NCBI GenBank assembly: GCA_003152315.1
Contig: PLZV01000022.1
Coordinates: 65,671 to 129,670 of the forward strand
Source: Verrucomicrobiota bacterium
GTDB taxonomy: Bacteria; Verrucomicrobiota; Verrucomicrobiia; Palsa-1439
DNA: 64,000 nucleotides
Direction of reading: 5' to 3'
A program made the translations under genes and the position numbers. The notes beneath the pieces are model-generated. The model saw nothing but the letters and a program-made list of their open reading frames with translations. It did not search any database and had not been told where the DNA came from. How positions within the stretch are numbered: position 1 is the first letter of the stretch; each line of letters begins with the position of its first letter. Positions 23,956 to 50,437 of this stretch are shown here, piece by piece.

Positions 23956-24915
23956 TCACCTGAATGCGGACAATGCCTTGGAGATTCTCTCGCGAAGTCC
24001 GTATGGGCTTGATCCCTCGGCTACCAACACGCGCTCGTTAAACGCCAGATCCGCGGCGGCGTCCGGCGTTACGACGGAGGGATGCACGAGCGGAAACTTC
24101 ATCGGCTCCGTCTGTGCCACGCGCCACGGGCAATTGGCCGAAAAGATGTGCGTCGCATCCTGGTCGAACCCGATATTCCGGCACAATTCGACATTCGGAA
24201 TCACCGACAGCCCGTTTTCCACCCAGCAAGTAAACGTCCATTGATAGTCCGAATAGGATGCCCGTGTGCCCGCCGTGTGCGCCTCGTCAAATATCCGACG
24301 CCACACCGCCGCGCCGCGCGACTCGCCCACGATGTAATTCAACCACGGCGTGTCCCGCAGCGCCGGCCAGCGCTTCAACTCGATGTCATAACACCGCCAG
24401 GCGCGCGCCCATGTAGCCCAACCACCGAGGCAGATGTTGTGACGCGAAAAGAAGTAGCTCGTGTTCACAAACCGTTGATTGTCTTGAAAGTGGTTTCCCG
24501 CCACATGCATAATGCGCTCATCCTCGCGGTAGCGCTCAAGTACCTCTTCGCAGAAAGGGAAGAACGACGGATCGGGCACGCAATCATCCTCGAGCACGAT
24601 CGCACGATCGACATTCTCGAAGACCCACGTCAATCCGCTGGCCGGGCACATTCCACAACCCAGGTTGCTGCCCGAGTACTTGCGTTGAACTTCGCATTCC
24701 CAGTCCACCTGCGCGACCACCGCGCGAGCGGCGGCGCATTTTTCGACATCCGTCGCGACATGGGGGCGCGGACCGTCGGCGATTAAGAACAGTTTCTTCG
24801 GTTTTGCCCGGGCAATTTCAGCAAAGACGCGGGCCGTTGTGTCGGGACGGTTGAAGAGAATGAGTGCAATGGGAGTGTTCACAGTAATTGTCCGGAATAC
24901 TTCTGGTGCCGCCAC
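23956..24915 (-). CDS. GT-A fold glycosyltransferase, GNT-I (GT13)-like; paralog A
   Basis: IALILFNRPD...KLFLIADGPR, VLEDDCVP; ~45% identical by eye to 28641-29687 product. Confidence 0.55.
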   Translation of the reverse strand: MAAPEVFRTITVNTPIALILFNRPDTTARVFAEIARAKPKKLFLIADGPRPHVATDVEKCAAARAVVAQVDWECEVQRKYSGSNLGCGMCPASGLTWVFENVDRAIVLEDDCVPDPSFFPFCEEVLERYREDERIMHVAGNHFQDNQRFVNTSYFFSRHNICLGGWATWARAWRCYDIELKRWPALRDTPWLNYIVGESRGAAVWRRIFDEAHTAGTRASYSDYQWTFTCWVENGLSVIPNVELCRNIGFDQDATHIFSANCPWRVAQTEPMKFPLVHPSVVTPDAAADLAFNERVLVAEGSSPYGLRERISKALSAFR

Positions 24916-26153
24916 GAGTGATGAACCAGCACGGTTGCGCCACGCCAGTCCGGCGGGTAGTTGCGGCCCGTGCCGTAGAAATCACCGTCAATCACCGACA
25001 TCTCCGCGGCCCGATCCACCCAGTCCTGAACGTCCGGGCCCGATTGGATGAAGGTGGTCAGATCGTAATTGCCGGCGGTAAGTGGCAACTCCGGGACAAC
25101 GAGATCGATAGTCCCTTCGCCTTCGAGATCGATTTGCGTCTTGTCGACAAGGTCCGTAGATAAGAGGAAGTAGAGTGCCTCGGCTTTGTGGACCGTTATG
25201 CAGACCCGGCAATTCCGGATGACCTTTCCGGGTTCAGTTCGATAATGCAGCCGGAATATGACCTGCTGGCCTGAGACCGGATGGCCCAGCGCGTTGTCCG
25301 TGGCGTCCCGCAACTCGACTGCCACGGCGCGGACATCGCCGCGTCCCTGGCGGTCAGTGCGGTGGGCGAGGGGAGTGCTGCTCATCTGCGAGAGTTCCGC
25401 GAGATAGCTGCTGATGACGTCGCTCGGAGCGCCATCCCGGGCTATACGACCATCCTTCAGCCAGATCACGCGCTGGCAGAGGTTATGGATCATCGCCATG
25501 TTATGGCTCACGAACAATACCGTGCGACCTTCCTTGTTGGCGACTTCGCCCATTTGGCCAAGGCACTTTTTTTGAAATGCCGCATCACCGACGGCGAGGA
25601 CCTCGTCCACCAGGAGGATTTCCGTTTCAAGGTGCGCCGCGACGGCGAAGGCCAGGCGGACGTACATGCCACTGGAGTACCGCTTCACGGGTGTATCGAC
25701 GAACTTTTCTATCTCCGCGAAATCAATGATCTGCTCAAGCTTGCGGTCAATCTCTCCCTTCGACATGCCGAGGATCGCGCCGCTCAAATAGATGTTCTCG
25801 CGGCCCGTCAACTCCGAATGAAAGCCGGTACCAACTTCCAGCAGCGAGCCGACACGCCCATAAATCCTGGCCAGGCCGTCCGTGGGATCGGTGATCCGCG
25901 AAAGCAGCTTTAGCAGCGTGCTCTTCCCGGCGCCATTGCGTCCGACGAATCCCACAATCTCACCGCGCGGCACATCGAAGGAAACGTCCCGCAACGCCCA
26001 GAATTTATTGCTCGCGGCCGGGCGGTTTTTCCATCGGGTCAGTGACCGCAGGCCACTGCTTAAGCGGTCGCGCAACGTATTGTACCGCTCCTGCCTGGCG
26101 CCGATGTCGTACACCTTGGAAAGATGTTCGGCGCAAATGGCTATCGAGTTCAT
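24879..26153 (-). CDS. wzt: Polysaccharide ABC exporter ATP-binding protein with C-terminal carbohydrate-binding extension
   Basis: Walker A GRNGAGKST, signature YSSGM, Walker B LLVDE, H-loop; extra ~170 aa C-terminal domain as in O-antigen-terminus-binding Wzt. Confidence 0.88.
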   Translation of the reverse strand: MNSIAICAEHLSKVYDIGARQERYNTLRDRLSSGLRSLTRWKNRPAASNKFWALRDVSFDVPRGEIVGFVGRNGAGKSTLLKLLSRITDPTDGLARIYGRVGSLLEVGTGFHSELTGRENIYLSGAILGMSKGEIDRKLEQIIDFAEIEKFVDTPVKRYSSGMYVRLAFAVAAHLETEILLVDEVLAVGDAAFQKKCLGQMGEVANKEGRTVLFVSHNMAMIHNLCQRVIWLKDGRIARDGAPSDVISSYLAELSQMSSTPLAHRTDRQGRGDVRAVAVELRDATDNALGHPVSGQQVIFRLHYRTEPGKVIRNCRVCITVHKAEALYFLLSTDLVDKTQIDLEGEGTIDLVVPELPLTAGNYDLTTFIQSGPDVQDWVDRAAEMSVIDGDFYGTGRNYPPDWRGATVLVHHSWRHQKYSGQLL

Positions 26154-27017
26154 TTAGATGATGTCTGCAAAGAACCGCTCGGTACGCTTGAAATAGACAA
26201 GGCCACCCAGCAAGAGGACGGACGCGACGACCACGCCCATGGCCATCACGGCGAAATCAGGCCGGGCATTGCCCAGCAGCGCCCAACGGAAACCTTCGAT
26301 GACCCCGACCATTGGATTCAGGCCGTACAGCAGCCGCCATTTTGCGGGGACGAGGTGCAGCGAATAGACGACGGGTGAAGCGTACATCCAAAACTGGATG
26401 AGGAAAGGAATCGCCTGTCCGACGTCGCGATATTTTACGTTGAGCGCTGAGAGATACAGGCTCACAGCCACCGCCGTCACCACCGCCAGAAGCGTGAAAA
26501 ACGGCAGCGCGAGCACACCCCACGTCGGCGCCACTCTATACCACGCCATCATGCCCAGCAGGATGACGAACGAGACCGCGAAATCGACCAAGGGGCCGAG
26601 CGCGCCCGAGATCGGTATGATCAATCGCGGGAAATAGACCTTGCTGATCAAGTTGGAGTTGCTGACGAGGCTGATGCCGCTGCGGGCGATGGCTTGGGAA
26701 AAGTAATTCCACGGCAACAACGCCGTGAAGGCAAAAATCGGGTAGGGCGACCCGTCCGAGGGCAGTTTCGCAAACAGGCCGAAGATCACAGTGAAAACAA
26801 CCATGGTGAGCAAGGGTTGCAAGACGACCCACGTGATGCCGATGGCGGCCTGTTTGTAGCGTACCAGTACGTCGCGCCAGACGAGAAAATAGAGCAACCC
26901 GCGATAGCGATAGACCGCCTCCAAGTCGAAGCTCAACCAGCCCGTGCGGGGCCGAATCAACACAACTGGCTGATTGTCTGTTAGCGACGGAATGGCGGCT
27001 GTGTGCACCAAGCTCAT
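26154..27017 (-). CDS. wzm: Polysaccharide ABC exporter permease (ABC-2 type)
   Basis: 6 TM ABC-2 permease; ATGA overlap with upstream gene when started at MSLVHT. Confidence 0.85.
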   Translation of the reverse strand: MSLVHTAAIPSLTDNQPVVLIRPRTGWLSFDLEAVYRYRGLLYFLVWRDVLVRYKQAAIGITWVVLQPLLTMVVFTVIFGLFAKLPSDGSPYPIFAFTALLPWNYFSQAIARSGISLVSNSNLISKVYFPRLIIPISGALGPLVDFAVSFVILLGMMAWYRVAPTWGVLALPFFTLLAVVTAVAVSLYLSALNVKYRDVGQAIPFLIQFWMYASPVVYSLHLVPAKWRLLYGLNPMVGVIEGFRWALLGNARPDFAVMAMGVVVASVLLLGGLVYFKRTERFFADII

Positions 27018-27898
27018 TTTCCGGTGACGATCAGTTTCTGGCCTTCTTTGGGGTCCGCCTTGAGCAAGTACGGCTCCCAAAAGGCGCGGTCGTACCGTGC
27101 CCAAGCGTGGCAACCGAATGGGAGTTGATGGTGATTGCGCTCCAGGCAAACGCGCGGCGAAACTTCGAAGGCAAAACGCAAGCCGGTTGCCACATCCGCG
27201 ATCTTGAACTCCGGATAGTAGTGCACCGCCTCGTCCGACCAGAAGATGTCGGCCTCGGTGCGGCGCCGAAGCCAGCGAAACATGTGAAACTGTGACGAGT
27301 TAAAGACGGGCAACCGCTTCAAGAATCTCTTGGGCAGGTTCAAGTATTGGATGTACTTCGGCTTCGACCCGTAGTACTCCTGCCAATATTGATCGGGATC
27401 GACGGTGGGTTTCGGGGAGTACAGTACCTTGAGGAAGCTCTGGACCTTCATCAGCGCAAAACCATTGTTGCCGACACGCTCCCTCTTAACCCAGGGCGAG
27501 TCAGGACAATGGATCCACGGCGGGCCGACGTAGTCGAGACCCGACTGGCACCATTGCTCGAGCTGATCGGACAAGACCAGGCTGTCGAGGTGATACATGA
27601 GGATGTACTTGTAATCAGCGAATGTCTCATAGAACAAGGGCGCTGTCACCAGCCGCGCATGCGCTGCGGCGCTGCCAAAGAATTTCCTCGCAAACGACTT
27701 TACTTGAAAGCCGGGGTGATCGAAAGTTACCGCACTCGGCGAGACCAGATACTTGTCGTAGCACGACAAGTAATGGATGGCGTGCCGTAGAGAGATTTGC
27801 TCATCGGGCGTCAGTGTCAACCGTTTCGAAAGAGGCACCACGACTGCCACGAGCTTGGTCGGCTCCTTCAGAACGGGGGTGTTAACGTGTAGGATCAT
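27014..27898 (-). CDS. Conserved hypothetical protein of polysaccharide loci (possibly DUF5672-like)
   Basis: No catalytic motifs recognised; GNNGFALMK block; translationally coupled to wzm. Confidence 0.45.
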   Translation of the reverse strand: MILHVNTPVLKEPTKLVAVVVPLSKRLTLTPDEQISLRHAIHYLSCYDKYLVSPSAVTFDHPGFQVKSFARKFFGSAAAHARLVTAPLFYETFADYKYILMYHLDSLVLSDQLEQWCQSGLDYVGPPWIHCPDSPWVKRERVGNNGFALMKVQSFLKVLYSPKPTVDPDQYWQEYYGSKPKYIQYLNLPKRFLKRLPVFNSSQFHMFRWLRRRTEADIFWSDEAVHYYPEFKIADVATGLRFAFEVSPRVCLERNHHQLPFGCHAWARYDRAFWEPYLLKADPKEGQKLIVTGK

Positions 27899-28644
27899 CG
27901 TCCGGCTCCCTGGAAATGGATCTGTTCGACTTCGCTCAATTCACTCCGCATTCTCACCACGCGTGCCGGCGACCCAACCACGACCGCGCCGTCCGGCACG
28001 TTATGCGTTACAACCGCACCCGCGCCAACCACGGCTCCTTTGCCGATGCGGACGCCCGACAGCACGATGACACCAAAGCCAAGCCACGCGTCGTCTTCGA
28101 TAATGATCGGACCCTTCGATTGCAGCGGCTGGTTGCGAATCAACGCTCCCGGCGCGATCCCGTGGTCGTACGAATAGAGTGCGCATTGGGGTGCGATCTG
28201 AACGCCGTTGCCGATCCGAATCGGCGCCACCGCCGCCGTGAAGTGGCAGCGTGGTTGAATTGCGGTGTCCGCGCCGACATGCAGGCTACCACCGGCGAAG
28301 GTTTCCACGATGATCTCCTGGAACAACATCACGCGGTCAGCCAACTCAACAGCGCCGCCACCTTCGTGTTGATAGATGATCACGCGGTCACCGATGAAGA
28401 CATTATTCCCTAATGTCAGGTTCGTGTGCGAGATCTGCGCGCTGGCGGAGACGTAGCCTTTGAGCTGAATCCGCGCCAATTCGAGGCCGCCCGTGTATGG
28501 CGGATACCCACATCCAGCGAGGCGCGTGGCAATCCGGCCGAAAAACCCACGGCCGGACCGTGCGAGCCAGAAGTTCACCCACATCCACGCAAGTCGCTTC
28601 CAGGCGCGAGCACCGAGGCCATCCGTATGCTTGGATACAGTCAT
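27895..28644 (-). CDS. Left-handed beta-helix (hexapeptide-repeat) acetyltransferase
   Basis: Repeated [LIV]G-x4 hexapeptides (IGNGVQIAPQCALYS, IIEDDAWLGFGVIVLSGVRIGKGAVVGAGAVV). Confidence 0.8.
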   Translation of the reverse strand: MTVSKHTDGLGARAWKRLAWMWVNFWLARSGRGFFGRIATRLAGCGYPPYTGGLELARIQLKGYVSASAQISHTNLTLGNNVFIGDRVIIYQHEGGGAVELADRVMLFQEIIVETFAGGSLHVGADTAIQPRCHFTAAVAPIRIGNGVQIAPQCALYSYDHGIAPGALIRNQPLQSKGPIIIEDDAWLGFGVIVLSGVRIGKGAVVGAGAVVTHNVPDGAVVVGSPARVVRMRSELSEVEQIHFQGAGR

Positions 28645-29687
28645 GGACGTGTCCGAAGGTTTCGCAGAAACATCCGTGTGGGCTTTGGGACAGCAGCGGT
28701 ATAGGCCGTGCGCGCCTTGTTGAACGCCCGCCGCAACGTGCTTTGCGTCCGTGGCATATCCATCAGCACGACTTCCTGAACGAAGAAATCATCGGCTTGT
28801 TTGTCGCGCAACATGCCTGATGGATGCTGCAAAGGGAAGGGCATTTCTGCAAGCGGAAGATTCGCCCATTTGCTTCCCGTCCAGGTGGTGTGCGTCGCAT
28901 CCTCGCCAAAGCCAATATTCGAAACCAAGTTGACGTTGGGCATGATGCAGAGGCCGTTGTGCACCCACGTTGCGAAGAGCCACTGGTAGTCCCAGTAATT
29001 GATCATACCACTCGCACGGTAGGCGTCTTCGAATTTCGTGGCCCAGTGTTGCGCCACCCGCGCATCGCCGACGAGATCCACCAACCACGACGTGTCGCGC
29101 AAGGCGGGCCATCGTTTCACGCCCATATCCATGTGCCGCCACGCACGACGCCAGGTGGCCCAGCCCCAGCAGATCTTGAATTGCGACAGGAAATAACTGG
29201 CGTCGCCGCGTTTGTGGCCGCGCTGGAAGTTGCTGCCGGCAATCTGCATGATTCGTTCATCATCACGATACAATTCGAGCAACTCGTCGCAGTAACGAAA
29301 GAAAGACGGGTGGGGCAGGCAGTCATCTTCCAGAATGATTGCGCGATCCGTTTGCTCAAATACCCAGTCGACCCCCGATGTGGGACCGCGACCGCACCCG
29401 AGGTTTATGTTCGAGTATTTTTTCACGACTTCGCACGGCCAGTCGATGCGCTCGATGACGGCGCGGGTGGCGGCGCATTTCTCGGCCTCGCCTGGTCGGT
29501 CGGGGCGGGGACCATCCGCAATAACGAACACTTTGGGAGGCTTGGCTTGGGCAACGGTCTCCGCCACCTTCGCGATCAGATCCGGTCGATTGAAGATAAT
29601 CAATGCCACTGGAGATTGCACGAAACGCCCTCCCAGTCTCTTACTGCTGCCGCTGCAGCATACATTGCCGCCATGAACGCGCCCCAA
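28641..29687 (-). CDS. GT-A fold glycosyltransferase, GNT-I (GT13)-like; paralog B
   Basis: VALIIFNRPD...KVFVIADGPR, ILEDDCLP; paralog of 23956-24915; alternative GTG start at 29621. Confidence 0.55.
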   Translation of the reverse strand: MGRVHGGNVCCSGSSKRLGGRFVQSPVALIIFNRPDLIAKVAETVAQAKPPKVFVIADGPRPDRPGEAEKCAATRAVIERIDWPCEVVKKYSNINLGCGRGPTSGVDWVFEQTDRAIILEDDCLPHPSFFRYCDELLELYRDDERIMQIAGSNFQRGHKRGDASYFLSQFKICWGWATWRRAWRHMDMGVKRWPALRDTSWLVDLVGDARVAQHWATKFEDAYRASGMINYWDYQWLFATWVHNGLCIMPNVNLVSNIGFGEDATHTTWTGSKWANLPLAEMPFPLQHPSGMLRDKQADDFFVQEVVLMDMPRTQSTLRRAFNKARTAYTAAVPKPTRMFLRNLRTRP

Positions 29688-30534
29688 GATCGATCAATTT
29701 CATTTCGACCAGCGATCCGCCGCCGAAATGTAGGAAGTAGCTGTTGGTCATGGTCGCGTTCAGGCAGGACCGCCGAACGTCGGAATATCGCAGACCGCCC
29801 AGATGGCGTGCGAGTTTTCGACCGATCCGCGCCACATAGGGCAGTTGTGGCTCTTCATTGATAAGAAACGGATAATGCAGGCAGATCTGGTCGAAGAGTG
29901 TGACATTGAAGCGCGGGTCGATCCAGCTTACGGCCTTGGCTCGAAGTAGTTCATAGGAGAGCGGGCGCATCTCGTAATTCCATTCCGCACCGCCCTTTTC
30001 CTCATGGTCGCGGTACGTTGTTTCAAACAATTCCCGATGATATCGTGGTGAGAACACGAGAACACCACATTGTACGACGTCGTCGAACTCCACAGCCAAA
30101 CCATAGTTTGCATAATATTGTTTAGCCGTGGCGTTTGGAATGGCCCTGTCACCCCAGTACTCCTGCAGGCGCTCGAGAATCTGCGCGTATTCCCCAACCG
30201 AAGGAGCGGCCCATTGATTGACCGCGCCGACCTTGTCGACAGGCACCATGGCGCAGATGCACGGGGCCGCGGCAATGTTGATCAGGATGTCAGAATCGAT
30301 CCACACGACTTGATTGTAGTTCTTCACGAATTCCTGACCGGGAATCAAGCATTTTTGCCAGGAAGGTGATCGTCGGGAAGCGCGTACGGAATTATCCAGA
30401 GGCTGATCGATGCAGATCAGGTCATACCCGTGCCGGTTGGCGTATTCGTTCCAATTCGCCTCGCACGACTCTTTCCAGGCATGGAGATAACGGTCCCCGA
30501 CGGCCATCGTCACAATTGCTTTCGAATGTTTCAT
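29641..30534 (-). CDS. Putative nucleotide-diphospho-sugar glycosyltransferase (GT-A, DxD motif; GT8-like), tandem paralog 1
   Basis: AIVTMAVGDRYL, SPSWQK, VVWIDSDILIN (DxD), FLHFGG; three tandem paralogs. Confidence 0.6.
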   Translation of the reverse strand: MKHSKAIVTMAVGDRYLHAWKESCEANWNEYANRHGYDLICIDQPLDNSVRASRRSPSWQKCLIPGQEFVKNYNQVVWIDSDILINIAAAPCICAMVPVDKVGAVNQWAAPSVGEYAQILERLQEYWGDRAIPNATAKQYYANYGLAVEFDDVVQCGVLVFSPRYHRELFETTYRDHEEKGGAEWNYEMRPLSYELLRAKAVSWIDPRFNVTLFDQICLHYPFLINEEPQLPYVARIGRKLARHLGGLRYSDVRRSCLNATMTNSYFLHFGGGSLVEMKLIDLGARSWRQCMLQRQQ

Positions 30535-30564
30535 TCGGTGCCCGTCCCTTGCCGTCTCTGGCCG

Positions 30565-31452
30565 CTAAAACTGGAAATCGCGCCATGAGTTCACGCGTTG
30601 GTTGACGAGCCTCATTTCATCGGTTGCCAGACCGCCAAAATGCAGGAAGAAACTGTTCAGGTACGTTGCTGTCAAACACGCTTCCTTGATCGTGGTCAAG
30701 GACGGCAAATTCATGATTGCGCCCAGTTTGCGCTTTACCCTGGCGACGTAACTGTGGTCCATCGTGGGTCTGATCAGAAAAGGGTAATGCAAGAATAAGA
30801 CCGCCGGCCACATCACGTTGAATCGGGGGTCGATCCATTGCACGCAACCCGCCTTGAGCATCTCATAGGACAGTGGACGCATCTCCATTTGCCATTCGCG
30901 TCCTCCCTTTTCTTCGTACTCGAAATACGTGCGCTCAAGCACAGCCCGGTGATGGCGCGGTGAAAGCACCAGCACACCGGTGTTGGCAACTTCATCGAAA
31001 CCGGAAGGCAACCCGTAGGTCATGTAGTATTCTCGGGCGGTATAGTTCACGACCGCGTGGCCTTCGCAGAAATCGTAAATCCGGTCGTGCACGGTCTGTC
31101 GGTAATGGCGCCACTCGCGCGAATACGGGTATTCCTCGACGGCCCCGATCTTTTCCGGGAGAACGCCTGCAATAATGTCGAGAGCCGCCGCGGCGTTGAT
31201 CATGATGTCCGAATCGATCCAAACGATTCGCTCGTAGTCTTGCGCAAAGTCCTGTTCCAAGATAAGGCATTTCTGCCACGCCGGCGAGCGTTTGCGGGCG
31301 CGTTCCGAATTATCGAGCGGTTTGTCGAGGCAGATGACATCGAAGCCGTGCTGCGCTGCGTAGGCGCGCCAATTCGCTTCGCAAGTGCTCCTCCAGTGGT
31401 GGAGGTACCGGTCGCCAACGGCTAACGTAACAATTGCCTTGGTATGGTTCAC
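30565..31452 (-). CDS. Putative nucleotide-diphospho-sugar glycosyltransferase (GT-A, DxD), tandem paralog 2
   Basis: AIVTLAVGDRYL, SPAWQK, IVWIDSDIMIN, FFLHFGG; start set at GTG forming GTGA overlap with upstream stop, giving 296 aa like paralogs. Confidence 0.55.
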   Translation of the reverse strand: MNHTKAIVTLAVGDRYLHHWRSTCEANWRAYAAQHGFDVICLDKPLDNSERARKRSPAWQKCLILEQDFAQDYERIVWIDSDIMINAAAALDIIAGVLPEKIGAVEEYPYSREWRHYRQTVHDRIYDFCEGHAVVNYTAREYYMTYGLPSGFDEVANTGVLVLSPRHHRAVLERTYFEYEEKGGREWQMEMRPLSYEMLKAGCVQWIDPRFNVMWPAVLFLHYPFLIRPTMDHSYVARVKRKLGAIMNLPSLTTIKEACLTATYLNSFFLHFGGLATDEMRLVNQRVNSWRDFQF

Positions 31453-32342
31453 AAGTGACCGGCCACCAACGTACACTGTTTCCATGAGGTGATGGACGGG
31501 TCCAACAGCCGCATATCTTCCTTCGTATCGCCGCCGAAGTGGAAAAAATAGCCGTTCAAGAATGTCGTGTTGATACACGCGCGCTTTACCTCTTCGAAGG
31601 AATCGCCCCCCATCCACTGCACCAACTTGCGCCGGATCCTTGCGGGATAGCCTGATACCAGCGGCTGTTGCAACAGGAACGGATAAAACAGGAATCGCAG
31701 TTCCCACCAATTCATATTGAACCGATGATCCAGCCAATGATCGCAACCCGCCTTCAGCAGTTCGTAGGAAAACGGTCGCATCTCCGCCAACCAGGCCGGT
31801 CCGCGATCTTCATAAGCGTGGTAATTGTGCTCCAGCAATTTCTGATGATGTCGCGGCGAGAGTACCATCACACCGTTGCCCGCCACGCGGTCGAACGCGC
31901 GATCGAACCCATAATTCTCGTAGTACTGCGGTGGATCATAATTCACCACCGCGCCGTCACCCCAAAACTCGTACATGCGGCGTAAACACTCGCGGTAAAG
32001 ATGTGGCACCGGTTGCTCCCAGTAATCGGGTACGCCGATCTTTTCCAGCGGCACACCCTCGGCAATGTCCGGTGCCGCCGCCACGTTGATCACGATGTCG
32101 CTGTCCATCCACACCACCCGCTCATACTGCGCCGCGAAATCCTGGCTCAAGATCAAACACTTCTGCCATGACGGTGACCGCTTCCGCGCACGTTCCGATG
32201 TGTCAAGCGCGCCCTCGAGGCAAATCACATCGTAGCCATGCTTGTCCGCGTATTGTTTCCAATTCGTTTCACAGCAATCCCTCCACAGCTTTGTGTAATA
32301 GTCGCCGACAACGAGCGTCGCGATGGCTTTTGTGGGCTTCAT
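31449..32342 (-). CDS. Putative nucleotide-diphospho-sugar glycosyltransferase (GT-A, DxD), tandem paralog 3
   Basis: AIATLVVGDYYT, SPSWQK, VVWMDSDIVIN, YFFHFGG; start at MKPTK (ATGA overlap with SDR gene). Confidence 0.55.
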   Translation of the reverse strand: MKPTKAIATLVVGDYYTKLWRDCCETNWKQYADKHGYDVICLEGALDTSERARKRSPSWQKCLILSQDFAAQYERVVWMDSDIVINVAAAPDIAEGVPLEKIGVPDYWEQPVPHLYRECLRRMYEFWGDGAVVNYDPPQYYENYGFDRAFDRVAGNGVMVLSPRHHQKLLEHNYHAYEDRGPAWLAEMRPFSYELLKAGCDHWLDHRFNMNWWELRFLFYPFLLQQPLVSGYPARIRRKLVQWMGGDSFEEVKRACINTTFLNGYFFHFGGDTKEDMRLLDPSITSWKQCTLVAGHL

Positions 32343-33046
32343 GGTTTTTGCATGGGTCGAATGTCGATCTCGGTGACTTCGGCCGTGCGCGGCAGGCACA
32401 GTGTGTGGGCCACCACCGACGCGATGTCCTCCGGCTGGAGCAACCGCTCGGGTCGATACTCTTTGCCTTCCAACCGATAAATCGCTGCCTGCATCGGCGT
32501 GGCCGTCCGTCCGGGGAAGACGCTCAAGACACGGATGCCAGCGGGGTTCACTTCGTCTCGCAGGTTGTCCGCGAACGCCTTCAGCGCCGTCTTCGTCGCG
32601 GTGTACTGACAAACGCCCGCGGGCAATCTGCGGGCAACGCTGGAGTTGATAAAGACGATCTGGCCGTGGCGGACTCGCAGTGCGGGCAGGAGTTCCTGCG
32701 TAAGCAAGGAGGGCGCACGCGTGTTTATGCGATGCTGTAAATCAAAATCAGCCAGTGTGGCTGGATCGACCCGATCTTGAACGAATACGCCCGCGCTATG
32801 AATGAGAATGTCCACGCCTTCGAAATCTTTCCGCAGCCTGGCGGCGACTTCACGAATCTGCGGTTCATCACCCAAATCAATGGGGAACGTCGTCACGCGC
32901 GGAGCCGCGAGTTGCAGCGCTTTGGCGTTACGACCGAGGAGGCAGAGAGTCGCACCTTGGGTGCCGAGCGCCAGGGCGATGGCCTTGCCGATGCCGCTGC
33001 TGGCGCCGGTGATCACCGCAACTTGATTCGTGAACGCGCCGTGCAT
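32339..33046 (-). CDS. SDR-family short-chain dehydrogenase/reductase
   Basis: VAVITGASSGIGKA (TGxxxGxG), NSS, YTATKTALK (YxxxK). Confidence 0.85.
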   Translation of the reverse strand: MHGAFTNQVAVITGASSGIGKAIALALGTQGATLCLLGRNAKALQLAAPRVTTFPIDLGDEPQIREVAARLRKDFEGVDILIHSAGVFVQDRVDPATLADFDLQHRINTRAPSLLTQELLPALRVRHGQIVFINSSVARRLPAGVCQYTATKTALKAFADNLRDEVNPAGIRVLSVFPGRTATPMQAAIYRLEGKEYRPERLLQPEDIASVVAHTLCLPRTAEVTEIDIRPMQKP

Positions 33047-34332
33047 TACACGGTCTCCTTCAACAGGGTATGTTGAACAAGCGTATCCGCAGCTTTGCGG
33101 ATGAGCCCAAACTCGAGACCTGAACGCTCTGCGATTTGAAGGAGCGTATGCTTGCCATCGGAGAGGTTTAACACCCAGAGCATCGCCAACTCAAACTGGC
33201 GCGCATCCGCCTGCCCGCCGATGGTTTGATACAGGCCACGCTTGCCGAGTTGCGGTTCACATTTTGGGTTGAGGTTTACGTACGCTTGGTTGCCCTCAAG
33301 CACCGCCAACGCCGCGAGGCATTTTGTGAAGGAGTCAGCCAGGCTGGCTGGCTTTACGAAATCGAGATTGTCCGCGGACGTGTGATACTCGGGGTAGCAA
33401 CCGTTCGGCGTGCGCATGAAACAACCGACCGGCAGGTTGAAACCGGGCGAGCAGTATTGGCGCTCGTCGAAACCATACGGCGTGAATTCGAGGATTTCAT
33501 GGTCCTGGCCGGAATGCTTCAACACGTGGGCCACGGCTCGATCAATCTCGGCGTCACCGCGCCGGCTCTTCTTATAAGTCAACCGGCCCGCGTCACCGAC
33601 GCAGGTGATCACCAACCCATGCTGGATGTTCGCGACGTTCGCCTCGTTGCGTGCGAGCCAGGTGATCGAGCCGATGGTGCCGGGGATAAACAAGAAACGA
33701 TAGGAATAGCGCGATTTGGATTCACCCAGGCGTTGCGCCAGAAATGTCGCGAGCGCAATGCCCGAAAGATTGTCGTTGGCCAACGATGGGTGGCAGGCGT
33801 GACAGGAGATAAGAACCTCGTCAGAACTCTGTCCGCGCAGGAGAAATTCGCCGTACGTGAGATGGCCATCTTGCAGCGTTGAGTCGATGCAGACTTCATA
33901 GACGTCGTCGGGGAGCGCGAGGAGCTGGCGGTGGCTCAAGCAGAACCCCCAGCGCTCTGCGTAGTAGGACGTGCGATACGGGATCCAATCCGGGTGCTCG
34001 GGAAGTGAGAACAGATGCGATCTCAATTCGGCGAGTGATAACTTCGTCCGGATCGGCGTGCTGTAGTTGAGGACGTGGAGGTTTGACTCCTGGAAGTCAA
34101 CGATGCGTTCGCCCCGGGTATTCTTGATGTAGGCGTCGCGAATATTCCATTCCTTGGGCACGATCCAGTCAAATACCGGCGTACCGGTCGGCACCTCAAC
34201 GACTTCGAGCGGGATATACCGGTGAATCGCTTGCAGCGTTTCCCGAAAGCCATTGCCTGTGATGCTGCGGCAAATCGGGTACAATTCGGCAATCAGCCGG
34301 TGCATCTCGTGGCCGATGTTGTCGGTCATCAT
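33046..34332 (-). CDS. Aminopeptidase-like (M28/DUF4910, COG4310) domain protein of polysaccharide loci
   Basis: HACHPSLANDNLSGIA block typical of M28-like metal-binding region; family commonly found in LPS clusters; function unknown. Confidence 0.55.
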   Translation of the reverse strand: MMTDNIGHEMHRLIAELYPICRSITGNGFRETLQAIHRYIPLEVVEVPTGTPVFDWIVPKEWNIRDAYIKNTRGERIVDFQESNLHVLNYSTPIRTKLSLAELRSHLFSLPEHPDWIPYRTSYYAERWGFCLSHRQLLALPDDVYEVCIDSTLQDGHLTYGEFLLRGQSSDEVLISCHACHPSLANDNLSGIALATFLAQRLGESKSRYSYRFLFIPGTIGSITWLARNEANVANIQHGLVITCVGDAGRLTYKKSRRGDAEIDRAVAHVLKHSGQDHEILEFTPYGFDERQYCSPGFNLPVGCFMRTPNGCYPEYHTSADNLDFVKPASLADSFTKCLAALAVLEGNQAYVNLNPKCEPQLGKRGLYQTIGGQADARQFELAMLWVLNLSDGKHTLLQIAERSGLEFGLIRKAADTLVQHTLLKETV

Positions 34333-34859
34333 GGTTTGAAATCGGGGTAGTTGCGGTCGCGGTCGGCAATCACCTTCACGTCACCGGGCCACTGGATGCC
34401 GAAAGCCGGGTCATTCCAGCGGACGCCCGCGCCGTGCTGGGGTGCGTAGTACACGGACATTTGGTAGGCGACCTCGGTGTTCGCTGTCAGTGTCAAGTAT
34501 CCATGCGCACAGCCCGGCGGAATCACGAGCATCTCCCGGTTTTCCGCGGTGAGAGGCGCGCCGACCCACTGCCGGAACGTGGGGGAGTCGCGTCGCAGGT
34601 CCACGGCCACATCGAAGATGGCGCCCATCGTGCAGCGCACGACCTTGGTCTCCTCATGCGGCGGAAGTTGATGGTGCATGCCGCGCAGCGTGCCCGGGTG
34701 CGGGTTGAAGGAGAGATTACATTGCACGAGGCGTGAATCGATTCCGTGCTTCGCGAACTCCGTCTGGCACCACAGGCGGCCGAAGAAGCCGCGTTCGTCG
34801 GCTATCCGCTCGAGTTCCAGTAGGCACACGCCTTGAATTCTGGTTTTTTTGAAGATCAT
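34329..34859 (-). CDS. NDP-4-keto-6-deoxyhexose 3,5-epimerase (RmlC-like cupin)
   Basis: GMHHQ..., KVVRCTMGAIFDVAVDLRRDSPTF, PPGCAHGY, WNDPAFGIQWP; start at internal Met MIFKKT. Confidence 0.8.
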   Translation of the reverse strand: MIFKKTRIQGVCLLELERIADERGFFGRLWCQTEFAKHGIDSRLVQCNLSFNPHPGTLRGMHHQLPPHEETKVVRCTMGAIFDVAVDLRRDSPTFRQWVGAPLTAENREMLVIPPGCAHGYLTLTANTEVAYQMSVYYAPQHGAGVRWNDPAFGIQWPGDVKVIADRDRNYPDFKP

Positions 34860-34890
34860 TGTGATAACAGTCGCGTTGCCGCCGGGCTCG

Positions 34891-35553
34891 TCAAAGTAAC
34901 AGCATTTTCTGGCAGTAGAAAGCCTCAGCGTATTTACCGGGCGCATTCGATTCAATGCCGCGGAGCCGCAGCAGGGCCAGGAACGTGTCCTCGCTGAACC
35001 ACTGTTTGGACTTTTGGGTCTTGAACTGCTCGCAAATGTGGCGGACCTTGCGTTTCGCCATCTCTTTGCTGAGATGGACGTAGGCATTGGGGGCGCCCAT
35101 GTCGCCGTCGTATTTCGGAATTTCGTACTCGAGAATCAGGTGGTTACGAAAAGCATTCCACGTTAACTCGGCCAACAGACGATGATCCTGATGCAGATCT
35201 TTGCGGTGGTGGGTGAAGATCAGGTCCGGCGCGACCTCGTGACTCAACTGTTGGACGAACTTCTTGATCCGCTCGCCCATGAACGGGAAGTAACTGTCCC
35301 GAAAACGCTTGACCACGATCCTCTTTGCAACAGCGCTCCGAAGGAAAACCTGTGCGCTGCCTTTGGCCTCGCGGGCGCGCAAGGGCGTAGCGCTGAAGAC
35401 GACCCAATGGATGGTAACGTTGGGATTCTGTTCGGTGAGTTTCAAGAGCGTGCCGCCGCAGCCGATCTCAATGTCGTCGGCGTGCGCGCCCAAGCACAGC
35501 ACGGTTCGTGGAGCGCGGGGTCGACTGTCGAGGTTGAGGGTGATCATGGGCAA
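34891..35553 (-). CDS. PIG-L/LmbE-family N-acetyl-sugar deacetylase
   Basis: LCLGAHADDIEIGCGGT signature, HHRKDLHQDH metal-binding region. Confidence 0.8.
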   Translation of the reverse strand: MPMITLNLDSRPRAPRTVLCLGAHADDIEIGCGGTLLKLTEQNPNVTIHWVVFSATPLRAREAKGSAQVFLRSAVAKRIVVKRFRDSYFPFMGERIKKFVQQLSHEVAPDLIFTHHRKDLHQDHRLLAELTWNAFRNHLILEYEIPKYDGDMGAPNAYVHLSKEMAKRKVRHICEQFKTQKSKQWFSEDTFLALLRLRGIESNAPGKYAEAFYCQKMLLL

Positions 35554-35571
35554 ACGTGATGAACGTGACCT

Positions 35572-36369
35572 TCAGGCAACGGCAGCCGGCGGTGGCTGCT
35601 TCCAGACTTCCCACGGGGCCTCACCGCGGGCGTGCATGTCTTCGAGTTGTTGTTTGTCTTTGAACGTATCCATGCCCGCCCAGAAGCCATCGTAGGTGAA
35701 GGCGCTGAGTTGGTTGTCGTCAGTAAGCCGCTGGAGCGGGCCGGGGACGAGTTCCTCCCCATTCTTAATGTAGTCGAAAATCCCCTGACGGAAAACGTAG
35801 AACCCGCCGTTAATGCGAATATTGGAGCCTCGAATGTCGCTGATCTCGGTCACCCTGCCATGATCACTCATGGTGACGAAGTGATAGGTGAGGTTCGGTT
35901 TGACGCAGAGGAATGTGGCGATCCGACTCTCTTGCTGGGCGAAGTTGATGAGATCGGACAGGGGTACGTCGGTCAGCCCATCACTGTAGTTGGCCAGAAA
36001 CATCTCTTCGCCCTCGAGGTGGTGTCGGACGAGCTTGAGTCGCTGGCCAACGGTGCAATACATGCCGGTGTCGACGAACGTGATCCGCCAGTCCTTCATG
36101 TCGTGGTTGAGCAACTGGATGTCGTGACCGCCGTTGGTCATGACGAAGTCGTTCAGAATGCACTCGTTATAGGTGAGGAAATACTGTTTGATCACATCGG
36201 CCTTATAGCCAAGACAGAGAATGAAGTCCTTGTGTCCGAAATGAGCGTAGTACTTCATGACATGCCACAAGATCGGCATGTAGCCAATTCTTACGAGCGG
36301 CTTGGGGAGGCTTTCCTCGGTTTCCTTCAAGCGCATCCCGAGACCGCCGCAGAACAAGACGACCTTCAT
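35572..36369 (-). CDS. Sugar-1-phosphate cytidylyltransferase, RfbF-like divergent paralog
   Basis: MKVVLFCGGLGMRL...LPKPLVRIGYMPILWHVMKYY, collinear with RfbF but diverged. Confidence 0.7.
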   Translation of the reverse strand: MKVVLFCGGLGMRLKETEESLPKPLVRIGYMPILWHVMKYYAHFGHKDFILCLGYKADVIKQYFLTYNECILNDFVMTNGGHDIQLLNHDMKDWRITFVDTGMYCTVGQRLKLVRHHLEGEEMFLANYSDGLTDVPLSDLINFAQQESRIATFLCVKPNLTYHFVTMSDHGRVTEISDIRGSNIRINGGFYVFRQGIFDYIKNGEELVPGPLQRLTDDNQLSAFTYDGFWAGMDTFKDKQQLEDMHARGEAPWEVWKQPPPAAVA

Positions 36370-36402
36370 GGTTTCATTCCTTTCACATTGTGCGTGTGTT
36401 CA

Positions 36403-37680
36403 TCACGGGTTGCCGGAAGTGCCCCGTGACGGATAGATCCTGACCTCGGGTATCGGCACCACAAATTCTCCACCCCATTCGCGGATAAACGCCATCTGTT
36501 GCATGATTTCATCTTTGATGTTCCAAGGCAAGATGATGACGTAATCGGGCTTTGTCTCCCGAATCTTGTCCGGATGATGGATCGGGATGTGCGTGCCCGG
36601 CAGAAACAACTTCTGCTTGTGCGGGCTGCGGTCAACAGTGTAGTCGATGAAGTCCGTGCGCACGCCGCAATAATTCAGCAGCGTGTTGCCCTTCGCCGGA
36701 GCGCCGTAACCGACAATCGTCTTGCCGCTGCGCTTCGCGGCAATCAGGAATTCCAATAGCTTGCGCTTGGTCTCTTTGACGCGCTCCGTAAAGGAAAGGT
36801 AGGTATTCAGCTGATCGTAACCGGCCCGCAACTCACGCTGGCGCAAGTCCTCGACGCGAGGTGTGCGGGGCCGTGACTCATCGCTAGTAAGCCGCGCGTA
36901 GATTCGCAGCGAGCCGCCGTGCGTGGGAAGTTCTTCGACATCGAACACCGTGAGTCCATGGGTGCCGAAGATCTTCTCGACCACGAGCAGGGACAGGTAT
37001 TGGTAGTGCTCATGGTACATCGTGTCGAATTGATTGTCCGCGATCAACCGTAACAGGTGCGGAAACTCCATCGTCAGGACACCCTTCGGCTTGAGCAACA
37101 GGCGCAGGCCTTCAACGAAGTCATTGATGTCCGGCACGTGCGCAAGCACATTGTTGCCGATCAGCAGATCGGCTTGACGGCCGCCTCGCGCCAGGTCCCG
37201 CGCGGTTTCTTCACCGAGAAATTTTACGACGGTCGGGATACCCTTCTGCGTCGCGGCGGCGGCGGTGTTGGCTGTAGGCTCGATACCCAAGACGGGAATT
37301 CCTTTCGCAACGAAGTACTGGAGCAGGTAGCCATCATTGCAAGCGACTTCGATAACGTGGTGTTGCGGACCGAGTTGGAGCCGCCCGGTGATCATCTCGA
37401 CATACGCTTTCGCGTGCGCCAACCAGCTATCGGAGAACGAGGAGAAATACGCGTAGCTGTCACTGAAGATATGCCGGGCGCTGATACAATCGGCAACCTG
37501 CACCAGAAGACAGCGGTCGCAGACCTTCACGTGGAGCGGGTAGAATGGCTCCATCTCGCTGAGCTGCGACACATTCCGATAATCATTCGCAATTGGTGAA
37601 GCGCCGAGGTCGAGGAAGGTATGCTCCAGGTCCGCGCCGCAGAATCGACACTGGCCGGGTTTGGTCATGCGGGTCTCCAA
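36403..37680 (-). CDS. NDP-hexose C-methyltransferase-family protein (TylCIII/EryBIII-type; Zn-ribbon + SAM MTase + C-terminal C-MT domain)
   Basis: N-terminal CRFCG...C..C zinc ribbon, VIEVACNDGYLL motif I, C-terminal GYGAPAKGNTLLNYCG nucleotide-sugar binding-like domain. Confidence 0.75.
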   Translation of the reverse strand: METRMTKPGQCRFCGADLEHTFLDLGASPIANDYRNVSQLSEMEPFYPLHVKVCDRCLLVQVADCISARHIFSDSYAYFSSFSDSWLAHAKAYVEMITGRLQLGPQHHVIEVACNDGYLLQYFVAKGIPVLGIEPTANTAAAATQKGIPTVVKFLGEETARDLARGGRQADLLIGNNVLAHVPDINDFVEGLRLLLKPKGVLTMEFPHLLRLIADNQFDTMYHEHYQYLSLLVVEKIFGTHGLTVFDVEELPTHGGSLRIYARLTSDESRPRTPRVEDLRQRELRAGYDQLNTYLSFTERVKETKRKLLEFLIAAKRSGKTIVGYGAPAKGNTLLNYCGVRTDFIDYTVDRSPHKQKLFLPGTHIPIHHPDKIRETKPDYVIILPWNIKDEIMQQMAFIREWGGEFVVPIPEVRIYPSRGTSGNP

Positions 37681-38693
37681 TGAAGGTTTTTATCAATCTG
37701 TGCCGTGCGCAGCAGATGCTCGAGTTGTTTCAGTCGCGTAAACGCGCGAAACTCAAATATCTCTCGTGTCATCTGGATCTTCTCAAACACTCCGTGGAGT
37801 TCCTGCGCGCCCGTGCGCGCGTCGCGCTGGCAGCGGAAACCGGGGAGCCGCGAGTTGATCTTGTCGAAATTAACCCGGTAGCTTCGATTGTCGGCGGCAT
37901 TCGCGCCGAAGCTGAGTCGGCAACCAGGGAACACGTCGGCTACGATCTCCGCGATCTCACGAACACGGTAGTTCTGGCCGTTGTCGCCGACATTGAACAC
38001 TTGATTGTGCACGATCTCGCGAGGCGCATTGAGGGCGCAAGCCACGGCGTCGCAAATATCCAGCACATGCACCAGCGGTCGCCATGGCGTGCCATCGCTG
38101 ATCATCTTGATTTCCTTCGTCGTCCACGCGAGGCCCGCCAGATTGTTCAGCACGATGTCGAACCGCATCCGCGGCGACGCGCCGAAGGCGGTCGCGTTGC
38201 GCAGGAACGTCGGCGAGAAGTTGTTGTCCGCAAGCGCCGAAACGTCACGTTCGACGAACACCTTACATTCAGCATAGGCGGTTTGCGGATTTGTGGGGGA
38301 TGTTTCCGTGACATTCTCGCTGGAGGCAACACCGTAGACACTGCATGAGGACGTATACACGAAGCGTGCGATCCCAACCTCCTTGCATTTTGTGGCCAAC
38401 GCGACACTGCCGCGATGATTGATCTGGAAGGTGAGTTCGGGATTGTGTTGCCCGAGCGGGTCGTTGGATAGTTCTGCGAGGTGGACCACCGCGTCGTAAC
38501 CGCGCAGGTCCTTGTGCGTGATATCGCGAATGTCCTGCTTGATTTGCCGCGCCGGGGGTAACACGCCGTTGTAGAGCAAACCATCACGGTAGAAGCCGGC
38601 ATCCAGTCCGGTGACGTGATGGCCGCGTTTCGCAAGCACATCGGCGAGCAATACGCCGATGTATCCGTCAGTTCCTGTGACTAGTAACTTCAT
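37665..38693 (-). CDS. NAD-dependent epimerase/dehydratase-family protein (likely NDP-sugar epimerase/4-ketoreductase)
   Basis: LLVTGTDGYIG Rossmann, SSCSVYG (Ser, no TDE dehydratase triad), YAECK YxxxK. Confidence 0.8.
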   Translation of the reverse strand: MKLLVTGTDGYIGVLLADVLAKRGHHVTGLDAGFYRDGLLYNGVLPPARQIKQDIRDITHKDLRGYDAVVHLAELSNDPLGQHNPELTFQINHRGSVALATKCKEVGIARFVYTSSCSVYGVASSENVTETSPTNPQTAYAECKVFVERDVSALADNNFSPTFLRNATAFGASPRMRFDIVLNNLAGLAWTTKEIKMISDGTPWRPLVHVLDICDAVACALNAPREIVHNQVFNVGDNGQNYRVREIAEIVADVFPGCRLSFGANAADNRSYRVNFDKINSRLPGFRCQRDARTGAQELHGVFEKIQMTREIFEFRAFTRLKQLEHLLRTAQIDKNLHWRPA

Positions 38694-38723
38694 GTTTCCT
38701 CGTTGCCGGAGTTCTATCCATTA

Positions 38724-39497
38724 TCATTTCCAGATCTTCCAGGGGACGTGGCCTGAGTTCCACAACTCCTCGAGGAGGTTCTTCTCCTTCAGCGTGTCCA
38801 TGCACGACCAGAAGCCAGTGTGCCGGTAGCCCATGAGTTGGCCGGCGTGCGCGAGACGCTCGACCGGTCCGCGCTCCCAGGAACAATCATCGCCGTCGAT
38901 GTAGTCGAGACATTTGCGATGCAAGACGAAATAGCCGCCGTTGATCCAGCCCTCCCGGGCCCCGGATTTCTCATAAAATTCGCGGACCTGGTTACCGTCG
39001 AAACCGATGCGGCCAAAGCGGGCTGGGGAGTGAACGGTGGTAACCGTCGCCAGTTTGCCATGCGCCTGATGGAATTTGATCAGCGACGTGATATCGATGT
39101 CGGCCACACCGTCGCCGTAGGTGAACATGAATGTCTCATCGTCGTCGATCCAATGGGCCAGCCGCTTGAGCCGCCCGCCGGTATTAGGATTGAGGCCGGT
39201 GTCTACAAGGTGGATCTTCCACTTCGGCTGGTTGCCCTTGTGGATACTCACCTTGCCGGTTGCGAGGTCAATGGTCACATCGTTGTTGAACGTATGGAAG
39301 TTCAGAAAGTAATCCTTGATGACCTCGCCGCGGTACCCGAGGGCAATGATGAACTCAGTGACATTATGGGCTGCGAAGATGTTCATGATGTGCCAGAGAA
39401 TCGGGCGTCCGCCGATCTCGACCATCGGCTTGGGTCGCAGGACGGTTTCCTCTGAGAGGCGGGAGCCGAATCCACCAGCGAGGATGATTGCTTTCAT
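38724..39497 (-). CDS. rfbF: Glucose-1-phosphate cytidylyltransferase
   Basis: MKAIILAGGFGSRLSEET..PKPMVEIGG.PILWHIM, near-collinear with Salmonella RfbF including C-terminal GHVPWKIW. Confidence 0.88.
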   Translation of the reverse strand: MKAIILAGGFGSRLSEETVLRPKPMVEIGGRPILWHIMNIFAAHNVTEFIIALGYRGEVIKDYFLNFHTFNNDVTIDLATGKVSIHKGNQPKWKIHLVDTGLNPNTGGRLKRLAHWIDDDETFMFTYGDGVADIDITSLIKFHQAHGKLATVTTVHSPARFGRIGFDGNQVREFYEKSGAREGWINGGYFVLHRKCLDYIDGDDCSWERGPVERLAHAGQLMGYRHTGFWSCMDTLKEKNLLEELWNSGHVPWKIWK

Positions 39498-42955: not shown

Positions 42956-43641
42956 CAGCCTCGATGGTGGGGACGGAATTTCAGGTCGCCCACATACGTC
43001 ACTTTGAGGTTGTCGGGGGAACCGGGAACGAGGCGGACCTTGTGCCCCGCTCGTTTGACGACGGCCGCGGTGCCTTCTTCGTTCCAATTGTTGCGTGCCG
43101 CGAGGCGGTTCGCGTGAAGGAGGATTTCCCGTCGGTATGCGTGCGGAATCTGCAGTGCGACAACCGAACGGCGAGGCAGAATCATTTTCAGCCCCTGCTT
43201 TTCCAAAAGACCCAGGCTGTCCCGCACGGGGACTTCCGTGTACAAGGCCACCGCACCGTGGCGTTGCACCTCTGCCAGCAGCCTCTCGAATAACTCGGCG
43301 GTGACAAACGGTCTTGCGACTTCGTGGAGTAGTATAATCGGCTTCGTACAGCACCGCAGGAGGCGGGACAAGGTTTCCTGCCGGGTCGCACCGCCGGCGA
43401 CCACCTGTACGGTTTTCGGCACGAGCCGACGGGCTCGCGCCAGATCCTCGGGTCGTACCCCAACGATGATCTCGGTGGCGAAGGGCGTTACAAGCGCCAC
43501 GGCACGTTCGAGCAGCGTCCGGCCTTCAAGACGAAGAAACGCCTTGGGGCGTCGACCGATACGATCACCCGAGCCGGCGGCCAGGATCAGGACGCTGACG
43601 CAGTCGGGTTTCACTTGCGAAGCGCGATTTACAGTGACCAT
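42955..43641 (-). CDS. IspD/TarI-family sugar-alcohol-phosphate cytidylyltransferase
   Basis: VSVLILAAGSGDRIG..PKAFL motif of IspD/TarI nucleotidyltransferases; adjacent to TagF-like gene. Confidence 0.75.
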   Translation of the reverse strand: MVTVNRASQVKPDCVSVLILAAGSGDRIGRRPKAFLRLEGRTLLERAVALVTPFATEIIVGVRPEDLARARRLVPKTVQVVAGGATRQETLSRLLRCCTKPIILLHEVARPFVTAELFERLLAEVQRHGAVALYTEVPVRDSLGLLEKQGLKMILPRRSVVALQIPHAYRREILLHANRLAARNNWNEEGTAAVVKRAGHKVRLVPGSPDNLKVTYVGDLKFRPHHRG

Positions 43642-44720: not shown

Positions 44721-44839
44721 ATCACTCTCGTCCAAACCGGGTGAGTGTACTGGCTCGCCTTGAAAATACTGCCGGCCGAAACTGCTCGGCCGAGGGCAGG
44801 CGCGACACTGGCAATCCCGCGAAGACGGTCCGGATGGGC

Positions 44840-48418: not shown

Positions 48419-48883
48419 TTTTAGCAAACCTCTACCAGAAAAACTCGTCGATCTTCCAGCGCGGACTCGGCTGGTCGACGGTCGTGGAACGATTTGTTCG
48501 TCTGGCCACCAATCTATCAAATGCCTCATCCGCCACTCGCACCTCAAGCGGCGTTCGCCCCGCTTGATTGTAGCGCAATTATGCTCGTTTTCAAAACTAC
48601 GTCAACCGCAAACCAGCCCGCGTGGGGGCAACTTCGGCGTATCACATTCTATTCAGAAGACTTATCATCAGCGCGCCGCGTGCCAAAAGCCAGTCTTTCC
48701 CTCTTCCGAATGGGTCCTGCGGTGGCCAGAGCCGTAAGTGGGTTCAGGGACGCGGGTTACTGCGAAAAAACGTTTCCAGAGCGGGCTAACGCATGGTCTA
48801 CGAAATAGTTACGTCTGCCTGTTATTGTCCAAAGTTCTGGCCGAGGCGTTCAGTTTGACGACCCACCTTCTCAGCGCAAGCGA

Positions 48884-50035: not shown

Positions 50036-50437
50036 GGGTGAACCTTTCGCTGTTTCGTTCAAACATGCGGCGGAGTGTAGGGTCAACTACAGGTGCCGAC
50101 AAGTGTGAAATACGTATGCTGGCGTGCCGAGGCCCGCGCAAATCGCCACTATTCCCAGTGCATTCATTGTGGGATACGAAATCCTGCGCCTAATGGTTCA
50201 GCAGGGCCAATGCCGACGTGAGAAGGAGTATTGCCTGCCGGGAAGATGTCCTTCGGCGCGTGAAATACTCAGGAATGAAACCAATGATGATGCGTCGCAG
50301 GTACGAGGTTGTGCTGTACATAATTGTCATGGTGACATTTCTGTTCGGCAGGTGTCTACCGCTCACCAACCAGATGCCGGTGATCCAAACCGGAGCGCGG
50401 GCATCTGCGATGCGGGCGCCAGATAGTGCATTCGCTT

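Follow-up and report, generated by a model that had tools for sequence, protein, structure and literature searches.

Glycosyltransferases of family GT8, such as LgtC, glycogenin and the Escherichia coli enzymes WaaO and WaaJ, have the GT-A fold. WaaO and WaaJ add successive α-linked hexoses to the lipopolysaccharide core of E. coli. WbbM carries a GT8-type retaining module together with a second transferase activity, and builds an alternating polymer. At a larger scale, conserved flanks around a recombining glycosyltransferase cassette are well known from the O-antigen and capsule loci of pathogens. Here we describe three tandem genes, named paralogs A, B and C, in a stretch of 64,000 nucleotides (hereafter the window) from a Verrucomicrobiota bacterium (contig PLZV01000022.1 of GenBank assembly GCA_003152315.1, positions 65,671 to 129,670). 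Probably, A, B and C are long-diverged and individually functional members of a soluble, metal-dependent GT-A family, remote kin of the GT8/GT34/GT24 retaining clade, acting on a glycan that is exported by Wzm and Wzt.

The three genes are consecutive, co-directional open reading frames on the (-) strand, and their order in the reading direction is C-B-A. Paralog A (29641–30534) starts with ATG and encodes 297 residues, paralog B (30565–31452) starts with GTG and encodes 295 residues, and paralog C (31449–32342) starts with ATG and encodes 297 residues. The codons of the motif D80-S-D82 are located at 30289–30297 in A, 31207–31215 in B and 32097–32105 in C. The codons of the conserved histidine are located at 29728–29730 (His269 of A), 30640–30642 (His271 of B) and 31539–31541 (His268 of C). 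The proteins align end to end with just two small gaps. According to BLASTP or alignment, the identity is 51% between A and B, 48% between A and C, and 53% between B and C, and E-values of 4e-106 and 9e-109 exclude chance by a wide margin. A sequence-only reading of this DNA had described three tandem paralogs of near-equal length, and these values agree with it. The blocks SP(S/A)WQK, (V/I)VW(I/M)DSDI(L/M/V)IN and (F/Y)F(L/F)HFGG, listed in the same reading, are all found in A, B and C. Its N-terminal pattern needs a small correction for C, which has AIATLVVGDYY in place of the AIVT(M/L)AVGDRY of A and B. The genes had also been described as linked by GTGA and ATGA overlaps. The GTGA overlap was read directly in the DNA at the C/B junction, where the GTG start of B lies on the stop codon of C. 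The ATGA overlap, by contrast, joins the upstream short-chain dehydrogenase/reductase (SDR) gene (32339–33046) to the start of C, and a 30-nucleotide spacer separates the stop of B from the start of A. WaaO and WaaJ are also adjacent diverged paralogs, with 34% identity in our alignment.

The structure of paralog B was modelled by AlphaFold2 using an alignment of 63 homologs, resulting in a predicted local distance difference test score (pLDDT) of 93.4 and a predicted template modelling score of 0.91. A Foldseek search of the PDB with this model gave 195 matches at E<=1e-3. The best 50 of the 195 all belong to the retaining group of GT-A glycosyltransferases. The structural neighbours include A64R, the UGGT catalytic domain, LgtC, XXYLT1, WbbM, glycogenin, the blood-group enzymes GTA/GTB, XXT1 and GlyE. 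The best match is the N-terminal domain of A64R of the chlorovirus PBCV-1 (PDB 2p6w; GT34-like), with an E-value of 6.5e-8 and a template modelling (TM) score of 0.67 on the target and 0.49 on the query. The identity to A64R is 13–14%. A64R is approximately 90 residues shorter, and thus about one third of the query is unmatched. The TM score of WbbM (PDB 6u4b) is 0.48 on the query. As in GT8, an N-terminal nucleotide-binding strand is followed by D/N-x-Y, a hydrophobic strand ends in DxD, and a C-terminal histidine is present in H-[FY]-x-G. Unlike GT8, the model of B has extra helices at residues 112–128 and 235–265, and the identity to GT8 structures is 12–14%.

The residues D80, D82 and H271 (B numbering) are invariant in the 63 homologs. 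A, B and C all contain the sequence W-[IM]-D80-S-D82, which is placed after a hydrophobic β-strand of residues 75–79. All the 32 family-invariant residues, the DxD motif and the histidine among them, are retained in the three paralogs. An hhalign comparison with a profile of E. coli WaaJ/WaaO places D80-x-D82 of the family on the DxD of GT8 with an E-value of 4e-4. Weak Pfam matches to GT8 (best 8.8e-7) and to GT34 (best 6e-5) were each obtained for 43 of the 63 family members, and a precomputed PF01501 match exists in just 3 of the 120 homologs listed. Transmembrane segments were not detected in A, B or C; the maximum Kyte–Doolittle mean over 19 residues is 1.2–1.75 and lies in the core β-strand. 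These results support, at the level of the fold, the earlier assignment to GT8-like GT-A proteins with a DxD motif. A fold other than that of glycosyltransferases or a disabled DxD would have contradicted it; the fold found is a glycosyltransferase fold, and both DxD and histidine are intact in all three copies. We regard the family as one of GT-A proteins that resemble GT8 and GT34 and for which no curated model exists.

Homologs are numerous. A word-seeded search gave 710, and an exhaustive profile search gave 1,345 clusters of 50% identity at E<=1e-3, of which 344 are at E<=1e-30. The family had no tblastn match in plasmid and phage collections. Some cyanobacterial members (L097, 8001–9218; P0070, P0087, P0101 and P0105) are fused to C-terminal tetratricopeptide repeats (TPR) and are about 405 residues long; here and below, L-numbers denote related loci or contigs compared with the window. 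The neighbours of the family gene in L097 encode an O-GlcNAc-transferase-like protein (GT41), a pilin and three methyltransferases, unlike the polysaccharide operons.

The sequence-only reading regarded the array as a recent local triplication, and mentioned phase variation as a possible consequence. Recent amplification of one glycosyltransferase, with near-identical copies feeding copy-number or phase variation, would account for tandem genes of the same strand and length, for the translational coupling at one junction, and for a copy number that varies among relatives. The divergence of the copies is not compatible with this explanation. The paralog pairs share 56–60% nucleotide identity, and the proportion of synonymous differences (pS) is 0.71–0.77, which means that synonymous sites are saturated. 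Orthologs in other genomes are far closer than the neighbours in the array. Orthologs of A show 79% identity in a Verrucomicrobiia metagenome-assembled genome (MAG; L001/L011) and 93% in L090. Those of B show 73% in the L001/L011 MAG and 85% in a metagenome protein, with 95% for a third ortholog, and those of C show 81–98% in the metagenome contigs L089–L095. A neighbour-joining tree separates A, B and C into three clades, and each clade also includes sequences of other genomes. Because of the saturated synonymous sites, the closer orthologs elsewhere and the separate clades, a recent triplication is rejected, and recent amplification in any form is hardly credible. The ratio of nonsynonymous to synonymous divergence against orthologs is 0.07–0.23 over all copies (0.07–0.23 for A, 0.07–0.21 for C). 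A, B and C are old subfamilies, each held under purifying selection.

Within the array there are no long DNA repeats, and the longest in-register repeats are 18–29 nucleotides at 70–87% identity. Simple-sequence tracts, tandem repeats and promoter or terminator signals inside the array were not above chance. Slipped-strand or repeat-mediated phase variation is rejected for lack of such repeats and simple-sequence tracts, and no mechanism for phase variation was found. Other arrangements of the family occur elsewhere. In L051 (10001–10828 and 12392–13228), two family copies flank Wzt and group together in the tree, and thus the pair seems to have arisen by a comparatively recent duplication, in contrast to the genes of the window. 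L016 (6100–6954 and 8526–9413) has its own two-copy arrangement.

Copy-number variation, also raised by the sequence-only reading, is observed. The related loci were compared at the syntenic site, which has the SDR gene before it and, after it, a DUF5672 gene or a gene resembling that of the glycosyltransferase GnT-I. The set C-B-A is present in the window, L007–L010 and L090. C and a divergent B-type gene are present in L089, in which A is absent, in L092, and in L091, whose contig breaks off within the second gene. L093 and L094 have only C, L001 and L011 have B-A without C, and L004 and L013 have a single B-type gene. According to sliding identity, L089 and the window are 91–99% identical in nucleotides upstream through C, with 92–99% from the DUF4910 gene through C. 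About 150–250 nucleotides into B the identity decreases, first to 87% and then to 45–70%. The sharp drop inside B, from 98–99% through C to about 60%, together with the missing A, indicates a recombination breakpoint, placed approximately at 31290–31440 within the conserved 5' portion of B, the interval in which L089 is 87% identical.

At this site the paralog set forms a variable cassette of one, two or three copies, swapped by recombination between close relatives. The variation thus consists in the replacement of genes and not in phase switching. As the set is exchanged and variable, strains with different sets would make different glycans; one to three copies among strains and lineages fits a contribution to glycan diversity. 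The arrangement resembles the variable cassettes of O-antigen and capsule loci, in which a glycosyltransferase region that varies among close relatives lies between conserved genes for sugar precursors and export, with a sharp breakpoint. It differs in that the present locus comes from uncultured Verrucomicrobiia-like populations and is known from genes alone.

The paralogs lie within a cluster of co-directional surface-polysaccharide genes on the (-) strand, which is over 40 kilobases (kb) long and extends from about 7875 to 50086, and in which an ATP-binding cassette (ABC) exporter and Wza/Wzc-type components are both present. The cluster encodes a carbamoyltransferase, an asparagine-synthase-like amidotransferase, several methyltransferases including FkbM-type ones, and at least 8 GT2/GT4 glycosyltransferases. 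A TagF-like glycerophosphotransferase (43629–44735), a Wzc-like protein (45564–47687), a Wza-like protein (47693–48547) and an outer-membrane β-barrel protein (48884–50086) are encoded on the same (-) strand. Downstream of the paralogs, the genes encode a GnT-I-like protein of 326 residues, a hexapeptide acyltransferase, a DUF5672 protein, Wzm, Wzt, a paralog of the 326-residue protein, and GT2/GT4 enzymes. Wzt (24879–26153, (-) strand) is composed of an ABC ATPase (PF00005, E 1e-20) and the carbohydrate-binding domain Wzt_C (PF14524, E 7e-9, above the cutoff), and Wzm (26154–27149, (-) strand) is an ABC-2 permease (PF01061, E 8e-17). Wzm and Wzt with its Wzt_C domain are located 2.5–4.8 kb downstream in the same operon, as in loci of ABC-transporter-dependent polysaccharide assembly, and they set the route by which the glycan is exported. 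In studied systems the Wzt_C domain recognises the chain-terminating residue, and by analogy the glycan here may be capped. A chain-terminator enzyme was not identified. The DUF5672 gene (27014–27898, (-) strand; E 8e-41) is located between those of the acyltransferase and Wzm. DUF5672 recurs with GT8-like, GnT-I-like and hexapeptide genes in L001, L013, L014, L093/L094 and L099, and a literature search on DUF5672 found nothing relevant.

Upstream of the paralogs, a sugar-nucleotide cassette (32339–39497, (-) strand) is syntenic in several Verrucomicrobiia MAGs. It contains genes for a glucose-1-phosphate cytidylyltransferase (TIGR02623, above the cutoff), an SDR epimerase/dehydratase, a TylC3-type sugar C-methyltransferase, a PIG-L protein, an RmlC-type epimerase (TIGR01221, above the cutoff), a DUF4910/DUF2172/HTH_47 protein and the SDR adjoining C. 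A second gene resembling those of nucleoside triphosphate transferases is located at about 35572–36369 on the (-) strand. The DUF4910 protein is tied by gene neighbourhood to modified-carbohydrate synthesis (PMC4000134). The cassette is one for a sugar linked to cytidine diphosphate (CDP), and its product is possibly a 3-C-methyl-6-deoxyhexose.

The gene directly downstream of A (28641–29621, (-) strand, GTG start) encodes the GnT-I (GT13)-like GT-A protein of 326 residues with an EDD motif, and its paralog, also with an EDD motif, is encoded at 23956–24915 on the (-) strand. The AlphaFold2 model of the 28641–29621 product has a pLDDT of 92. The top Foldseek matches are GnT-I (PDB 1fo8, E 7e-11) and POMGnT1, with E-values from 7e-11 to 5e-10. 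GnT-I and POMGnT1 are inverting GT13 enzymes. The Pfam GNT-I match of the 28641–29621 product (E 0.006) is below the threshold, and neither protein of the pair has a Pfam or NCBIfam assignment. Relatives of the GnT-I-like protein number at least 7,999 matches, and are named "glycosyltransferase family 2" or "hemolytic protein HlpA-like" by the sources. Among 78 species-level loci of the family from GTDB genomes, 31 have a GnT-I-like gene within 400 nucleotides downstream of the family gene. These loci are spread over Verrucomicrobiota, cyanobacteria, actinomycetes, Abditibacteriota, Planctomycetota and Chloroflexota. Three genes of about 290 codons in L099 were considered as a second triplet; one of them only is a family member, and another encodes the GnT-I-like partner. 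The pairing of a GT8-like gene with that of a GnT-I-like inverting glycosyltransferase beside Wzm/Wzt recalls WbbM. It differs from WbbM in that the two activities would reside in separate proteins, the partner is GT13-like and not of the DUF4422 (GT111) type, and a polymerase activity is putative. The frequent pairing suggests sequential α and β additions by the family enzyme and the GnT-I-like enzyme.

According to these features, a catalytic scheme can be proposed. Each paralog would bind a nucleoside diphosphate sugar by means of its conserved N-terminal half and of a divalent cation held by the DxD motif and the histidine. The activity would be Mn-dependent. The sugar would be transferred to the growing undecaprenyl-linked glycan at the cytoplasmic face, and the glycan would then be exported by Wzm and Wzt. 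The transfer would proceed with retention, as the near structural neighbours of the model are all retaining enzymes. Most likely, A, B and C would each act at an acceptor position of its own in the lipid-linked glycan, with non-redundant roles, and the paralogs probably cooperate with the adjacent GnT-I-like inverting transferase. In alignment blocks, the divergence among A, B and C peaks at residues ~101–140, ~241–260 and in the C-terminal tail, and the least conserved parts over the whole family are ~101–140 and ~221–260. The C-terminal half of GT-A enzymes is generally the acceptor side. The choice of acceptor would be governed by the two variable segments, residues ~101–140 and ~221–260.

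Several observations weigh against this assignment. The similarity to the structural neighbours is moderate, with 9–14% identity and TM scores of 0.4–0.5 on the query, and the relationship is thus remote. The Pfam GT8 model PF01501 gives 11.7 bits for A, 14.4 bits for B and no match for C at a cutoff of 24.3, and the GT34 model PF05637 gives 12.7–15.9 bits at a cutoff of 23, covering residues ~18–86 only. An NCBIfam scan of A, B and C gave zero matches. The earlier remark that the proteins are not cleanly assignable agrees with these scores. Searches of PDB sequences with profiles of 3 and of 63 sequences gave no meaningful match. The hhalign match to WaaJ/WaaO is weak, with a probability of 34% over 45 columns. 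It aligned the DxD region alone, and the invariant histidine sits in [FY]F[LF]HFGG, compared with H-x-x-G-x-x-K-P-W for the histidine that is the third metal ligand of GT8. The GT8 motifs DQDxLN and KPW were not found by eye, and EMRPLSYE and HFGG are present instead. As these motifs are absent, the catalytic centre may differ from that of GT8. For the same reason, and because EMRPLSYE is the block best conserved across the family, the proteins are kept out of GT8 and GT34. Homologs are named "hypothetical protein", or "tetratricopeptide repeat protein" in the case of the cyanobacterial fusions, and literature searches on DUF5672, HlpA-like proteins and CDP-sugar C-methyltransferases of O-antigens yielded nothing on the family. 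Finally, it is only from the positions at which the sequences diverge, taken with the acceptor side of GT-A enzymes, that three distinct acceptor or linkage specificities are suggested.

Other explanations of the array were also considered. The three enzymes could be dedicated to the unusual CDP-linked C-methyl deoxyhexose of the upstream cassette, using a CDP-sugar and not a uridine diphosphate (UDP)-sugar donor. One or more family genes do directly follow the cytidylyltransferase/C-methyltransferase/RmlC/DUF4910/SDR cassette in the window and in Verrucomicrobiia relatives. Over the 78 loci, however, the cassette adjoins the family only in Verrucomicrobiia, and it is missing from most of the loci, those of cyanobacteria, actinomycetes and acidobacteria outside Verrucomicrobiota, so that a general tie between the family and the cassette was rejected. 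Moreover, three transferases for a single donor would be unusual, and the nearest folds are all users of UDP-sugars. This explanation is therefore unlikely. A still smaller chance is given to the idea that one copy is catalytic and the others are scaffolds or regulators in a complex of several glycosyltransferases, or redundant back-ups. One copy suffices in related loci, and the TPR units of some cyanobacterial homologs are protein-interaction domains. Against this, A, B and C keep every invariant residue, purifying selection is similarly strong on all three, and the subfamilies are separately maintained elsewhere. Equally improbable is a GT-A enzyme whose acceptor is a protein, a lipid or a small molecule, or which glucosylates itself as glycogenin does, with no extension of a polysaccharide. 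Among the fold neighbours, glycogenin, UGGT and the capsid-glycosylating A64R act on proteins, and the family gene of one cyanobacterial locus adjoins O-GlcNAc-transferase-like and pilin genes. In the window and in most surveyed loci, on the other hand, the gene lies within polysaccharide assembly and export operons, beside other glycosyltransferase genes and Wzm/Wzt. Our preferred reading is that of three old, separately functional glycosyltransferases of an exported glycan. A bolder proposal is that the family is a separate unclassified glycosyltransferase family which forms with the GnT-I-like protein an obligate two-enzyme module, polymerising alternating α/β glycans for ABC-transporter-dependent export in many phyla, and that C-B-A is a serotype-determining cassette shuffled by recombination. 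We put it forward tentatively, and regard it as doubtful.

The family itself is uncharacterised, and the kind of system in which it is found is well known. The arrangement is ordinary in kind and would not surprise a specialist, and it opens no long-standing question. The locus is a clear case of the familiar recombining glycosyltransferase cassette in uncultured Verrucomicrobiia of soil or freshwater. The value of the result lies mainly in annotation. Some 1,300 clusters labelled "hypothetical", which come from Verrucomicrobiota, cyanobacteria, actinomycetes, acidobacteria and further phyla, can now receive the name of GT8/GT34-like DxD glycosyltransferases, often paired with a GnT-I-like protein.

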